A DNA stretch of 64,000 nt from Malacoraja senta (GCA_038087875.1 CM075996.1:2296001-2360000); one strand, 5' to 3'. Shown: positions 17,348-44,138, counted from the first letter of the stretch. Notes: a model not told the origin generated them from the letters alone. Translations and numbers: made by a program.

Positions 17348-18048
17348 TCACCTCTTGCCAAAGCCTTTGGGGTTCATTGTTTTGAAGGGGGGAGAGTAAT
17401 CCTTTAGCTTGTGGTTTAGTGCCTCATTCAGTCTGTGTGACAGGCCGTGCATCAGGCAGGTGCTGAGAGTGCAGGGTTCAGCATGTGGTGAGAAGTGTCT
17501 GTGCGTCTTCACCTTGCTATGTGACACAGTGACGGAATCAAAACAGTCAGTCAGTACAATTAATCTGTCCCATGTGAACACGCAGTCAAAACAGCGACCC
17601 ACACCTCAAGCTCTGGAACGCTCCCTCCCTGTATCTCTCCAACCTGTTCATTAATAATTTCCATAAAAACAAAGGATTTTGTTTTGATAACAGGACATTT
17701 TTGCTCAGTGATATGCCTTTTGGGTGGTCCACTGCCCTGATATCACTCCATATTGGAGTGTAGCCAATTGCACTGATGAAACTCCACATTAGAGTGTGGC
17801 CCACTGCACTGAAATCTCTCTATATTGGGCTGTGTTTGATTTTACTGTGAACCTGAATTATGTTGTAGCTTTCTTCTTTCACACTCCTGAAGTCTGATTG
17901 TAAAGGTATGCCGATTTTCAAATTGTGTTGCTGGAAAATAGAGTTGATTAAAAATGAATACTCGCCTATTGGCATTGTCCACCTCCTGTGCCTCACCAGG
18001 AGTTCCAATGTTTAAACAGAAGAGGGCAACAAGAGCAATTATCATCAT
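17348..18048 (-). CDS. Adrenomedullin/CGRP-family-like prepropeptide, copy 1 (open frame). Exons 18048-17966, optional 17643-17605, 17516-17348: MMIIALVALFCLNIGTPGEAQEVDNAN-R-LERYREGAFQSL-S-KVKTHRHFSPHAEPCTLSTCLMHGLSHRLNEALNHKLKDYSPPFKTMNPKGF-GKR*
   Basis: Hydrophobic signal peptide; phase-2 junctions (AG|GCGAGT, cag|G, AG|GTGTGG, cacatag|C) that keep frame with or without the 39-nt exon; C-x4-C ring (CTLSTC), LSHRL helix, P-x-G-F followed by GKR amidation/cleavage signal, as in adrenomedullins. Confidence 0.8.
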
Positions 18049-18195
18049 CTCGATATGCTGATCTGGAAATGCATAGTATGCGGAAATTATCACAGTGCTT
18101 GTGCTGCCAGCTGCAGTTTGATTAGGAATGGTGTGAGTGATGCTGATGTTAGCCCAGAGAACACTGCTGCACCCCTCCCACCCAGTTCCTTGGTC

Positions 18196-18202
18196 TTTTA
18201 TA
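18196..18202 (-). promoter_or_regulatory. Putative TATA box of AM-like copy 1 (duplicate at 44286-44292)
   Basis: TATAAAAG on the minus strand ~150 nt upstream of the signal-peptide ATG at 18048. Confidence 0.6.
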
Positions 18203-20491
18203 TTTGTTTTGCAAGTCTCAGATAATGTTCATCCTGTAACCCACCAGGGCAAGGAGAAGTGCAGCAGATATTGGGAACTCCACCACATACAGGAGCGCAT
18301 GAGAATGTGGCATAAGATAGAAATCGTGCGAACAGGCGATCGATGACTTGGACAGGGTGGGCCGAAGGTTGGGTTTCCATGCTTTATTTCTAAACTCAAA
18401 ATGTAGGTTCCCTACAAGTCAAAAACTACCCTGACCTGAAGTTTGATAAACTTAGCTGAAGTGGGGCAGGATATGAGGTGTTGTCTTCAGGACCACCGAA
18501 CTAAAGTCTAGTTGAAGAGTCAGCAAACAGTGACCTCCAGGAAACAGGAGAGAAAAATCATCGGAGCATGAGAAAACTGCATCTCCCCTTAATTTCTGAA
18601 TTGTCCAGCAACTTTGACTTGCCAGGGCATTCAAGAGTCTTTAGCATCTCAGAAATATAATCTATGAACCACAAATGAGTTCTAACAATTAATATGAAAG
18701 ATAAATACAAGCCACCTACCCAGTTTAATCTTGTAAACTGGACTTCCGAGTCTCTGAGCAATAATGTCTCAGTGATGATTGGATTCCTCACAGGACAGCA
18801 CTGACACTGCTACAGTGTGCTGGAGTGTAAGAGCTTTATACCTTGGAAAGCGTCAGAGCTTTATGCATTTGAAAGGGCGTGGACTGTCTCCCACACAAAT
18901 TATCTCACCAGCTTTTAATCTTCCCAAGAAATTATTCATATCTTCTTCATGTAAGGACAACATAAATATTTTTAAGGTACATTGGTAATTGCAACAACCA
19001 TAATATCTAATTCACCATTCACACTGTACTGCTTCTCTGGTGCAGCAATGCTAGAGTAATGGATCATGGGTGGGGGGGATTCAGAGGCAAGGGAGATGAT
19101 GGGTGGATGACATAGAGGGTATGATTAAATAGTGGGACAAAAGCTAGGATGAGATGATATTGTGGACTAAAAATACAGGTGTGGTTCCCATGCATGACAG
19201 GGAAAACTCAAATATTTAGTCCTTGAGAATCCCCACAGTCCTTGTGGACAAACTGTTGGAATCCTACAATTAGACAAGAAGAGCGCTCTTGGACAGGGAG
19301 AAAATGTAAAGGTTTATACGTTGACTTTCTGTAGACACAAATATAGGTACTAGAACAGACTGACTGTTTCTGCACATGTCATAGACATGTCATTCCATAG
19401 ACAACCGGCAGAACTCCATCAGGTGGATATCTGGTGTTCCTGTTGACAGGAAGGTGTAACTCTTAACGATGGATTGGTACAGCTGATAGAATAAAATAAT
19501 TTAGGTTATTAAAAGCTGGACAGGTAGAATAACTGGAGACTACAGTTAGATACAGACAACAGACAGATCACCTGCAGACTACAGTAATAAAGTGAAAACA
19601 CCTATACATGAAATGGAGACACTGGTGAAATGCTGGGTGAAAAGCCCAATAGCAAGAAGCTAAGAATGTAAAGCTCACAAAGTGAGGACAGATCTGATCC
19701 TTGGTAACTCACAGATAAGGAAATGATTTGGCAGATAGGGAGGTGCCGATCAGAACATGGTGTTTTTCCAATGAAGTTGATCATTGACAAATATCAGAAC
19801 AAATTGATCTCTCTTGTAAAAACTTGCTTCACCTATTATTTATTTCAGGATGAGCTGTTAAACTATACCTATGGTAACATTCTGCCTTTCTTGTTATTGA
19901 GAATCAAGCAGGAATTGACTATATTTGAGAAGGATCGACAGGGAATGGAACAGAACCTCACTGGAAAGAAATTAGCCTAGACCTAGTTTGGTCGAGATGC
20001 AATTGGACGTCGAACCTTGAACCTGTTGAATGTCTCTTACAAACCTGCTGAACCCACACCCAACACACACACTTTGGAATAGGTGAAATGGCCAAACATG
20101 TAATTCAGTGATAATAACCATAGCTTTAATACCTTGATTCATTCACTTTGAGTGCAGAAGTAAAGTTACTGCTGTCAAATACATTGGCGTCAGTTAATAT
20201 CAATGTTATCAGATTCAACAGCATCTGACAGAGAAGTTGATTGCTATGAGTGACTCCTGCAGATGGAAAACTAGAATCCTTAGAGTTGAAAATCCTATCG
20301 ATGACAGGCAGAGATCCTACAAAAGAACAGGTAGAGTTCCACAGGTATCATACAGAGATAAATGTAGAGTTCCTGCAGCTGGACCTACAAATGAATAGAC
20401 AGGCTTCTTACACATAAACAAGTGGAGTTACTTTAGGCATCAGGTTGAGTGTCTCCTGATGGCGAGTAGGGTGACTACAGATCATGATTGT

Positions 20492-20736
20492 GTTAAAGAA
20501 GGAACTGCAGATGCTGGAAAATCGAAGGTACACAAAAATGCTGGAGAAACTCAGCGGGTGCAGCAGCATCTATGGAGCGAAGGAAATAGGCAACGTTTCA
20601 GGCCGAAACCCTTCTTCAGTCTGATAGGGGGTGGGGAGAAGAAAGGAAAAAGGGTTTCGGCCCGAAACGTTGCCTATTTCCTTCGCTCCATAGATGCTGC
20701 TGCACCCGCTGAGTTTCTCCAGCATTTTTGTGTACC
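20492..20736. mobile_element. Palindromic non-autonomous Penelope-like terminal-repeat element with 15-bp flanking duplication (duplicate at 46582-46826)
   Basis: Inverted arms ~20527-20612 and ~20651-20736; ACAGATCATGATTGT at 20477-20491 and 20737-20751; CTGAAGAAGGGTTTCGGCCTGAAACGT motif on the minus strand. Confidence 0.75.
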
Positions 20737-42290: not shown

Positions 42291-42323
42291 TGTTGGCAAT
42301 GCCATTTAATACAGCCACCTCAC

Positions 42324-42559
42324 TCTCCAGAAAGTCATAATCTCCCTGTGATATAGAGACCAGATTGTTGCATTATAAACCTGATATTGACCAGTGCTTG
42401 TAATGGTTTGATACCGGATATCCAAAGTGCCATCGTGTTTCATGTACGCGAAGTCATCGTCAGAGAAGGTGCGAGACTTTGGGGGGGCTCTGGTCCTGGT
42501 TGTCCAGCCCATCCACTTGCAAGATCTTGTTGACGCCAGGGTTTGACAACTGCAGCTCA
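42324..42559 (-). pseudogene. Second copy of pro-region exon 'X' with a 1-nt frameshift in a G7 run
   Basis: Same acceptor and donor as 40375-40653; 236 nt instead of 235; G7 at 42481-42487 versus G6 in the other copy. Confidence 0.6.
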
Positions 42560-43415
42560 CTGTGTTTAGAGAATGAGAGAGGAGAGAAAAGTGGTTTGAA
42601 AGGTTAGTTATGGCACAGATCAATTGCCTCAAAAATGACCTTGGTTCACTTCAGTTTGTTTGAAGCCACAACAAATCAAACAATAGAAGATGTTAGCACA
42701 CTGGCTGTCCACTCTGCTTTGGCAATCTGGGCTACAGGGATGCCTACATCAGACTGCACATCATCAATTCTGTGGAATTGATTGCCACAGAAGTGCTACG
42801 GAGGCCAAATCAATGGATATTTTAAAGGCAGATATAGATAAATTCTTGATTAGTACGGGTGTCAGGGGTTATGGAAAGAAGGCAGAAGAATGGGGTTATG
42901 AGGGAAAGATCGATCAGCCATGATTGAATGCGGATTAGACTTGATGGGTTGAATGGCCTAATTCTGCTTCTACCATTTATGAACATGGACTATAGTTCGG
43001 CATTCAACTCAAGCATACCCTCTAAACATCACCAAGCATCAAGACCTGGGCCTCAACCCAACTGTTTCTCACTGTACTTGTGGCTATGACAATAGGTACA
43101 ATTCTTGACCTATTTTGACTTGAAAGTGACCCTACATTACAGAACATCTGACAAGAAAGTGGTGGGGGGGGGGGGGGGGAAGTATCTTTGGTGGTACCTC
43201 CTACCCTGATATCACTCTATATTTGAGGGTGGTCCACTGCCCTGATATCACTCCATATTGGAGTGTAGCCAATTGCACTGATGAAACTCCACATTAGAGT
43301 GTGGCCCACTGCACTGATATCTCTTTTATGTTGGGGTGTGTTTGATTTTACTATGAACCTGTGGAGTGTAAGTCACAGTTGAATGTTACAGGATACTTGG
43401 GTCAGCTACATGTTG

Positions 43416-44138
43416 TTACTGGGCTACCCTGGTTGAATACCTTGAAACAAATCTTCTCCGTCGCCTCTTGCCAAGGCCAAAGGGGCTCATTAACATGTAG
43501 AATAAAACGTCATCCTTTTGCTTCTGGATTAGTGATTCATTCAGCTTGCTGGTGCCGAGACGGTAGGGTTCAACAAGTGGTTGGAAGTGTCGGTGCGTCT
43601 TCACCTTGCTATGTGACACAGTGACGGAATCAAAACAGTCAGTCAGTACAATTAATCTGGCCCATGTGAACACGCAGTCAAAACAGCGACCCACACCTCA
43701 AGCTCTGGAACTCCCTCCCTGTATCTCTCCAACCTGTTCATTAATAATTTCCATAAAAACAAAGGATTTTGTTTTGATAACAGGACATTTTTGCTCAGTG
43801 ATATGCCTTTTGGGTGGTCCACTGCCCTGATATCACTCCATATTGGAGTGTAGCCAATTGCACTGATGAAACTCCACATTAGAGTGTGGCCCACTGCACT
43901 GAAATCTCTCTATATTGGGCTGTGTTTGATTTTACTGTGAACCTGAATTATGTTGTAGCTTTCTTCTTTCACACTCCTGAAGTCTGATTGTAAAGGTATG
44001 CCGATTTTCAAATTGTGTTGCTGGAAAATAGAGTTGATTAAAAATGAATACTCGCCTATTGGCATTGTCCACCTCCTGTGCCTCACCAGGAGTTCCAATG
44101 TTTAAACAGAAGAGGGCAACAAGAGCAATTATCATCAT
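43416..44138 (-). CDS. AM-like prepropeptide copy 4, cysteine-less. Exons 44138-44056 and 43608-43416: MMIIALVALFCLNIGTPGEAQEVDNAN-S-KVKTHRHFQPLVEPYRLGTSKLNESLIQKQKDDVLFYMLMSPFGL-GKRRRRRFVSRYSTRVAQ*
   Basis: Signal exon coding sequence identical to copy 1; mature exon open and keeps GKRR; in frame only if the 37-nt middle exon (43733-43697) is skipped. Confidence 0.6.

Follow-up and report, generated by a model that had tools for sequence, protein, structure and literature searches.

General features of the locus

The window analysed here is a 64,000-nt stretch of the genome of the skate Malacoraja senta (GCA_038087875.1 CM075996.1:2296001-2360000), which carries a cluster of adrenomedullin-family exons with two open copies, A and B, of a derived terminal peptide exon. 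Copy A (17348..17516, minus strand, coding to TGA) encodes a C-x4-C ring, C-T-L-S-T-C with a Thr before the second Cys and presumably closed by a disulfide, followed by a predicted helix and a Phe-Gly-Lys-Arg amidation signal with the stop directly after it. Copy B (43416..43608, minus strand) has lost both cysteines (Cys to Tyr and Cys to Ser) together with seven codons of the helix; it carries a Leu-Gly-Lys-Arg-Arg amidation signal and continues through the ancestral tail to TAA.

The two exons lie in the two copies of a 15.3-kb tandem duplicate (unstranded), the first at 16667..32002, which starts at an assembly gap, and the second at 42780..58110, which stops at one. The contig carrying both is bounded by 200-N gaps, and the blocks fill both its ends. 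They share 99.0% identity counting gaps and are 99.8% identical outside the peptide exon, with 19 substitutions in 9,002 bases away from it and none in 4,150 bases upstream. A third exon, copy C (37350..37591, minus strand), is the conserved AM5-like terminal exon. It has 82-88% amino acid identity with the AM5-like precursors of Amblyraja and Leucoraja and is frameshifted just before the ring. Between two anchors C has 183 bases against 194 in the contig of another species, 11 nt shorter, and contig spans in the short-read runs X1 and X2 confirmed the short form. C encoded the parent hormone and is now a dead exon in this genome.

Divergence between copies A and B

Over 48 aligned codons (A 17515-17351, B 43607-43464) the two exons differ at 35 nucleotides, giving 22 amino acid replacements and two purely synonymous codons, besides an in-frame 21-nt gap; a preliminary description of this DNA had arrived at exactly these counts. 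It had also placed the divergence between a KVKTHRHF leader and the GKR signal, and there it is confined: the mature core has 34 differences in 111 aligned bases, whereas the leader has 1 in 25 and the coding sequence that follows GKR 1 in 57 (Fisher p 8e-27 for the core versus the nearest flanks, 2e-18 versus the 3' flank). The signal-peptide coding sequences, said to be identical, show 0 differences in 83 bases, and the roughly six differences in some 380 bp reported for the 3' flank were found as 6/380 over 16667-17046. The next stretch, 17047-17302, has 10 of 256 bases different and four indels, so the 3' flank is a mosaic and less homogeneous than that figure suggests. From signal exon to peptide exon, a distance of 449 bases, the only substitution is at 17568.

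The adrenomedullin-family origin proposed earlier for both copies holds for A by Pfam PF00214 (E 2.7e-7, 31.6 bits versus a cut-off of 22.3), whereas B, which gave no Pfam family at E<=1, belongs there through DNA homology only. An Atlas search with B gave no usable match. With A as the only query, a search of proteins 98-2000 residues long gave two candidates, neither of them scored, and profile searches returned no A- or B-type protein besides the Rhinoraja model P0025; such short genes are easily missed by annotation. The sole PDB match was human ADM2 (E 0.26). Arthropod allatostatin A peptides end in F-G-L-amide, as B would; this likeness was set aside because the aromatic residue at -5 is absent from B.

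Gene structure and splicing

The signal-peptide exon of A (17966..18062, minus strand, ATG at 18048) encodes 27 residues, all 27 identical to those of the Amblyraja and Leucoraja precursors, and that of B (44056..44152, minus strand, ATG at 44138) has the same coding sequence. Upstream of each lie a predicted TATA box and non-coding first exon on the minus strand, at 18720..18840 for A (TATA at 18840, with a GT donor) and at 44810..44930 for B. Along the minus strand, exon 1 is followed by the signal exon, derived exon B, two copies of a pro-region exon and, last, exon C. Neither A nor B has a pro-region exon between signal and peptide exon, and a direct phase-2 join of the two would give open frames of 83 residues (A) and 91 residues (B).

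The probable intron of A (17517..17965, minus strand, 449 nt) would begin at a GC donor (AG/GCGAGT), otherwise consensus, and keep the frame. Both A and B carry a mutation in the ancestral acceptor AG, and an A-like contig of run X3, which comes from another species, has a different one there; the next AG lies 15 nt downstream, in frame, and would serve as acceptor. The same join of signal exon to peptide exon, there an intermediate peptide exon, is made in the Rhinoraja RefSeq model P0025. The 88-nt intron of the preliminary description is probably wrong. It requires a middle exon whose length, 39 nt in A and 37 nt in B, would put one of the two copies out of frame; with a frame that differs between A and B and no counterpart in the P0012 and P0025 proteins, this exon was rejected.

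The R-x-K-R convertase site has been lost, since R-V-K-R of C is K-V-K-T in A and B. The mature peptide might instead begin after a cut behind K-T-H-R, which is our guess. Among the read sets listed for the locus no run is recorded as RNA, which is evidence neither way.

Identity of the locus

Other family members were found elsewhere in the genome: amylin on contig C9, together with TNPO3 and an IRF, and calcitonin/CGRP (CALCA) and AM1 on C3. This AM1 shares 97% identity with its counterpart in the skate Rhinoraja longicauda, which marks the genome as a skate's. A liver-expressed AM5-like gene was reportedly described in Squalus by Wong and Takei in 2009. The cluster in the window lies on C20, beside a TNPO3 paralogue. 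Its parent motif Q-T-H-N-L-A-N, read by hand against the primers in a table of PMC4657274, fits the medaka AM5 primer reading Q-L-H-N-L-A and not the AM2 primer. Because the locus is on neither the AM1/CGRP nor the amylin/TNPO3/IRF contig, and because the motif fits, we file it in the AM5 group of the family chromosome scheme (AM1/CGRP, AM2/amylin, AM5) set out in part of PMC6283891; judged by sequence and position, it is the second adrenomedullin of cartilaginous fishes. Searches of the IRF and carnitine acyltransferase families, with the best candidates scored, gave no direct AM5 synteny marker (CPT1C, IRF3) on C20, and no separate AM2 gene was found genome-wide, where again only the best candidates were scored. 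With C broken, AM1 may be the sole conventional adrenomedullin of this species.

In the galeomorph sharks Scyliorhinus (P0026), Mustelus (P0027) and Hemiscyllium (P0029) the second adrenomedullin is also strongly diverged, by 17-21 of 38 residues from the conserved type in the two that were tabulated, with gains of H-R-L-like helix residues. It is a second, independent acceleration of the same gene. An Anolis sagrei model (XP_067322913, P0030) has a tandem of two diverged adrenomedullin precursors, and a comparable duplication may have taken place in this anole.

Copy number and assembly

An assembly-wide DNA search for the peptide exon gave five matches, all inside the window: the two open copies A and B and three broken ones, C, D1 and D2. 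The same search with the signal exon gave two matches, those of A and B; near the D copies, an exon-1 relic and four other stretches local alignments scored at shuffle level and gave no second signal exon. C, D1, D2 and the relic had been missed before, and the "expanding family" of the preliminary description was overstated, with two open copies, three broken ones, a dead parent hormone exon, and A and B possibly allelic. The A unit breaks off at the gap after derived exon A. More copies may sit in assembly gaps. A further signal-exon paralogue, about 91% alike over 17955-18066, occurs in runs X1 and X3 and is absent from the assembly and from X2.

Exon A was found without substitution in short-read contigs of X1 and X2, either of which may be the assembly's own sample, and an X1 contig carries nine B-type differences over 17459-17530, corresponding to the first 72 bases of exon B.

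A and B could instead be two alleles of one locus, wrongly assembled in tandem; the divergent exon would then be a balanced polymorphism, for which selection is still needed. The 99.8% block identity falls within the range of heterozygosity, both block ends lie at assembly gaps, and the divergence declines further away from the exon. Read depth in X1 is 23.7 for A and 22.6 for B, which together make about that of the shared upstream part (51.3), of D (54.6) and of C (46.6), yet C is single in the assembly. Such values suit a single heterozygous locus at depth 50 and also a pair of tandem units at 25 each whose second C is lost in a gap, so that the tandem unit predicts the same ratios. Both blocks lie in one gap-free contig, which requires a real block-to-block junction, and other-locus contigs touching a short interspersed nuclear element (SINE) at 18347 have depths of 26.4 and ~28.6 in X1 (2.6 in X2), near those of A and B and not 50, a weak comparison that covers two or three loci only. 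In addition, A plus a second branch is present in both samples. The gap-free junction and the SINE-contig depths favour paralogues, and we consider the allelic explanation possible but unlikely. The exon is held apart by selection whether A and B are paralogues or alleles.

Probable selection on the peptide

In codon maximum likelihood (ML) analysis the ratio of non-synonymous to synonymous rates (dN/dS) between A and B was 4.4 (p 0.024), with 4.4-8.8 over four gap placements (p 0.006-0.024). It was 8.3 (p 0.004) in the mature core and 2.3 (p 0.017) for A, B and C together. Where A and B encode the same residue, only 2 of 26 codons differ, and codons with a single hit comprise 13 replacements and two synonymous changes.

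A stronger argument than these tests is the external cap given by C. A and B share derived states against C and hence split after the C split, so the A-C differences in the adjacent intron (11/183) and in the 3' part (15/105) limit the neutral distance to at most ~0.06-0.14, against a dN of 0.33-0.39 between A and B. Homogenisation of the flanks cannot remove this excess.

In a distance table of 11 relatives plus A, B and C (made without a tree, and with Hemiscyllium P0029 dropped for length) the skates Leucoraja, Amblyraja and Rhinoraja are set apart from Heptranchias by 6-8 changes among the 38 residues of the parent peptide. This peptide is 24-26 of 38 residues away from A and 23-24 of 31 away from B, and A and B disagree at 19 of 31. 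The X3 contig from another species, which carries an A-like exon, shows 63 substitutions and 28 gap letters over 614 bases, against 35 differences in 734 for that species' upstream contig. Overall the selection statistics are fair, not overwhelming, and positive selection on a secreted receptor ligand appears likely.

The pattern might also have arisen if the exons are older paralogues and gene conversion has homogenised their flanks, with the peptides drifting under relaxed constraint, the signal inflated by multi-nucleotide mutations, and B being a pseudo-exon. Mosaic flanks (0% over 4,150 bases, 1.6-3.9% on the 3' side), an exon dS of 0.05-0.17 that lies above the flanks, nine multi-hit codons and three dead sister copies all agree with it. 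It is opposed by the few differences among same-residue codons, by the neutral distance capped at 6-14%, by the hallmark sites kept in A and by the lack of a donor copy among the five assembly matches, though gaps remain. We regard it as rather improbable for the locus as a whole, and relaxed drift as plausible for B alone.

Constraint and convergence in copy A

In neutral simulation from C with the observed 50 changes, the open frame and all eight hallmark sites were kept in 1 of 20,000 runs, and none of 3,000 open-frame runs reached the profile score of A at 50, 40 or 30 changes. The Pfam score of A also exceeds that of the post-break part of C (23.1 bits). By these sequence measures A keeps ring, predicted helix and amide signal beyond neutral drift and is not a decaying exon.

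A has gained six residues matching AM1 of this genome (expected 1.15, p 0.00035), and eight, probably seven, towards the 40-residue AM1 type P0054, which we take to be a teleost AM1 (best-of-141 pool control p 0.00075). The residues shared with AM1 are on identical codons in 8 of 17 cases, against 13 of 14 for those shared with C. Shared residues on different codons mean convergence and not conversion, and gene conversion from AM1 as source of the helix was ruled out by this codon usage. The helix of A thus appears to have converged on AM1-type residues. Of the 23 changes that could be polarised, 18 fall in B, which has the look of either an antagonist without a ring or a copy in decay.

Proposed origin and function

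We lean towards the reading that an exon derived from the AM5-like gene of skates was duplicated into A and B, which would encode positively selected ligands of calcitonin-family receptors. From the sequence, the layout, the divergence pattern and the constraint on A, which are seen directly, we infer the splicing, processing, receptor action and role as follows. Skates would have duplicated the peptide-coding last exon of the gene and set the copy directly behind the signal exon, and a recent 26-kb tandem duplication would then have produced the two versions. Splicing of the signal exon to the derived exon would give short secreted precursors (83 and 91 residues) with no pro-region, and the G-K-R signals suggest C-terminal amidation at Phe in A and at Leu in B. 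The peptide would have been positively selected as a ligand of the receptors CLR or CTR with RAMPs.

According to parts of PMC4504005, based on solved complexes, calcitonin-family ligand fragments lacking the N-terminal region are antagonists, and a C-terminal Tyr-to-Phe change lowers RAMP2-type binding, alone not conferring CGRP-receptor selectivity. Because of these rules we read A, with its activating ring and helix kept, its helix shifted towards the AM1 type and its Phe-amide, as most likely an agonist with altered RAMP preference, and B, lacking the activating N-terminus, as most likely a binding-only antagonist or else a copy losing function. That divergence recurs, both from species to species and among young copies, would suggest a conflict setting. 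Signalling in mating or by another exocrine route seems to us about as likely as endocrine re-tuning that followed loss of the parent hormone, and both seem likelier than defence.

Several observations weigh against this reading. The furin motif of the parent is absent from both copies, the splice donor is GC and the ancestral acceptor is mutated, and within the stretch examined no AATAAA follows A or B, only variant hexamers. The layout is read from DNA and gene models. The single-sequence fold of A gave a helix at 17-39 with low confidence (predicted local distance difference test, pLDDT, 63-73 in this block and 59.5 overall). Of the eight gains towards P0054, His9 is probably ancestral, and A was part of the profile that retrieved the proteins behind the profile and convergence tests, so that both are biased; the hallmark count is free of this bias. 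The change load of B and its absent Pfam and Atlas matches are as would be expected of a decaying copy. The accelerated evolution and positive selection claimed earlier stand by the ML ratios and by the hallmarks kept in A, and do not stand by counting (Nei-Gojobori dN/dS of A-B 1.9-2.6, Fisher p 0.07-0.17) or by single-hit codons; significance of the ML ratio depends on the nine multi-hit codons and disappears when these are dropped (dN/dS 2.3, p 0.28). For A-C alone dN/dS was 1.5 (p 0.32).

We also consider a bolder version, which we hold to be doubtful. Here skates would have re-invented the calcitonin/CGRP trick, a single signal exon serving two peptides, in the adrenomedullin branch, with an extra exon giving a secreted, hypervariable agonist/antagonist pair that acts on mates or on other fish, with AM1-type convergence and with loss of the parent AM5-like hormone in this species. 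If true, this would make a family of conflict peptides derived from a vertebrate hormone, one so far unknown from cartilaginous fishes.

The preliminary description saw a toxin-like signature and a possible co-option for defence, skin/mucus or reproductive secretions; as a defensive toxin the peptide would be a hormone mimic released in skin or mucus to act on predatory fish or on parasites. Duplicated genes with a conserved signal exon and a hypervariable mature part are the pattern of venoms and doppelganger toxins, and A and B show it, along with loss of the pro-region. A is also nearer to P0054 (20/41 identical) than to its own parent (14/41), as in the pool control above. The convergence is about equally strong towards the skate's own AM1, and the proposal is read from DNA. 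Skates are not known to have a venom apparatus. Parts of two reviews (PMC13311285, PMC12962067) describe doppelganger peptides, calcitonin-family peptides used on another organism, such as vampire-bat CGRP and the adrenomedullin of the tick Ornithodoros, the precedents for such a role given in PMC13311285. Those were demonstrated in salivary glands with measured activity, whereas A and B are known from DNA alone, and in the searched passages of both reviews the words skate and stingray occur 0 times. The evolutionary pattern makes a toxin possible, although we judge it improbable, and a skate-specific re-engineered AM5-like ligand exon would explain the locus better.

Membrane-active host-defence peptides derived from adrenomedullin seem more improbable still. 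Mammalian AM1 is antimicrobial and fish AM5 is expressed in the spleen of eel and pufferfish, as stated in part of PMC4657274; A is cationic and His-rich, and such peptides evolve fast. The net charge falls from +8 in the Leucoraja parent to +5 in A and +3 in B, a drop that speaks against killing of microbes by lysis; the best 11-residue hydrophobic moment shows no increase, and the gains of A are at receptor-type helix positions. An assembly chimera or sequencing error, for which the gaps flanking the contig might speak, has next to no chance, being contradicted by the exact A in two runs, the first 72 bases of B in X1 and the short C in X1 and X2.

Comparison with known systems

The AM5-like genes of cartilaginous fishes (Amblyraja XP_032869220, Leucoraja XP_055519375, Mobula, Narcine, Heptranchias) have the same signal exon, a peptide exon orthologous to C and the same tail after the amidation site. 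Unlike them, A and B lack the pro-region exon and R-x-K-R, and the conserved exon is frameshifted here. The closest likeness to the join proposed here for the derived exon is Rhinoraja longicauda LOC144611412 (XP_078286608, the uncharacterised RefSeq model P0025), in which the signal exon is joined directly to a second peptide exon. Its peptide shares residues with A near both ends, differs from the parent at 11 of 38 residues and from A at 21 of 38, and keeps R-x-K-R and a Tyr-amide; the model has an implausible N-terminal extension.

In CALCA, which gives calcitonin and CGRP via alternative terminal exons, a peptide exon likewise lies between the shared signal exon and a downstream peptide exon. 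The skate arrangement differs in having arisen independently in the adrenomedullin branch and in that its downstream exon is dead in this species. The layout fits CALCA-like alternative use of exons, and the two joins occur in gene models of different species (P0012/P0019 versus P0025), not of one. Calcitonin receptor-stimulating peptides (CRSP) of pig, horse and dog are likewise lineage-specific tandem duplicates in the calcitonin family, as described in parts of PMC6283891, PMC4978884 and bioRxiv 2026.01.09.698515, derived from CGRP whereas the skate copies derive from AM5. The examined portions of this CRSP literature held no case of such divergence between copies with 99.8% alike flanks. 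A review notes, in part of PMC6283891, that the calcitonin-family inventory in cartilaginous fishes is incomplete. Full-text literature searches, with most subscription journals outside their coverage, found no paper on skate adrenomedullins that are duplicated or evolve fast.

Hormones of the calcitonin family, which include the blood-vessel hormone adrenomedullin, rank with the most conserved peptides of vertebrates, and A has retained the receptor-activating frame despite exchanging two thirds of its residues. Together with its natural ring-less sister B it would be a ready experiment in re-tuning the selectivity of CLR/RAMP, a migraine and cardiovascular drug target, and the pair is a candidate for sexual or inter-species conflict in skates.

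Relics and other elements of the window

The remaining family relics are on the minus strand unless stated. A 3' remnant of the pro-region exon of C (38359..38390) is cut by an insertion of the long interspersed nuclear element (LINE) type at ~38391-39200, and its intron read-through matches P0037. A divergent paralogous pro-region exon (40510..40653) is open with phase 2 at both ends, and its second copy (42415..42559) has a 1-nt insertion. D1 (24046..27850) is an older pseudogene with an exon-1 relic with mutated donor and a terminal exon with frameshifts and a stop; no signal exon was found in it. Its duplicate D2 (50136..53939) has one difference in 160 exon bases. An inverted promoter and exon-1 relic, ~65% alike, lies on the plus strand at 11363..11570 and is not followed by further exons up to the gap.

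A 135-bp segment, 95% alike, occurs on both sides of the derived exon in A and in B (17109-17247, 17722-17859, 43227-43361, 43812-43949) and may be a trace of how the exon came beside the signal exon. Between the duplicated blocks lies an L1-type LINE (34498-36702, minus strand) with a 504-residue open reverse-transcriptase frame, a candidate duplication breakpoint. Exons of the TNPO3/importin-13-like paralogue (58584-58892, plus strand; Pfam PF24140, E 3.9e-10) have an apparent frameshift, and the canonical TNPO3 exon on C9 is present in two copies 55 kb apart. Run X8 (108 Mb of contigs, kind unknown) covers 27 of 30 locus bins at depth 4-8, introns and promoter included; we did not take this as expression, and it may reflect amplification of the locus or an enriched library. 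At 291-3850 (minus strand) there is a decayed DIRS-like element with tyrosine-recombinase SAM-like and reverse transcriptase pieces.

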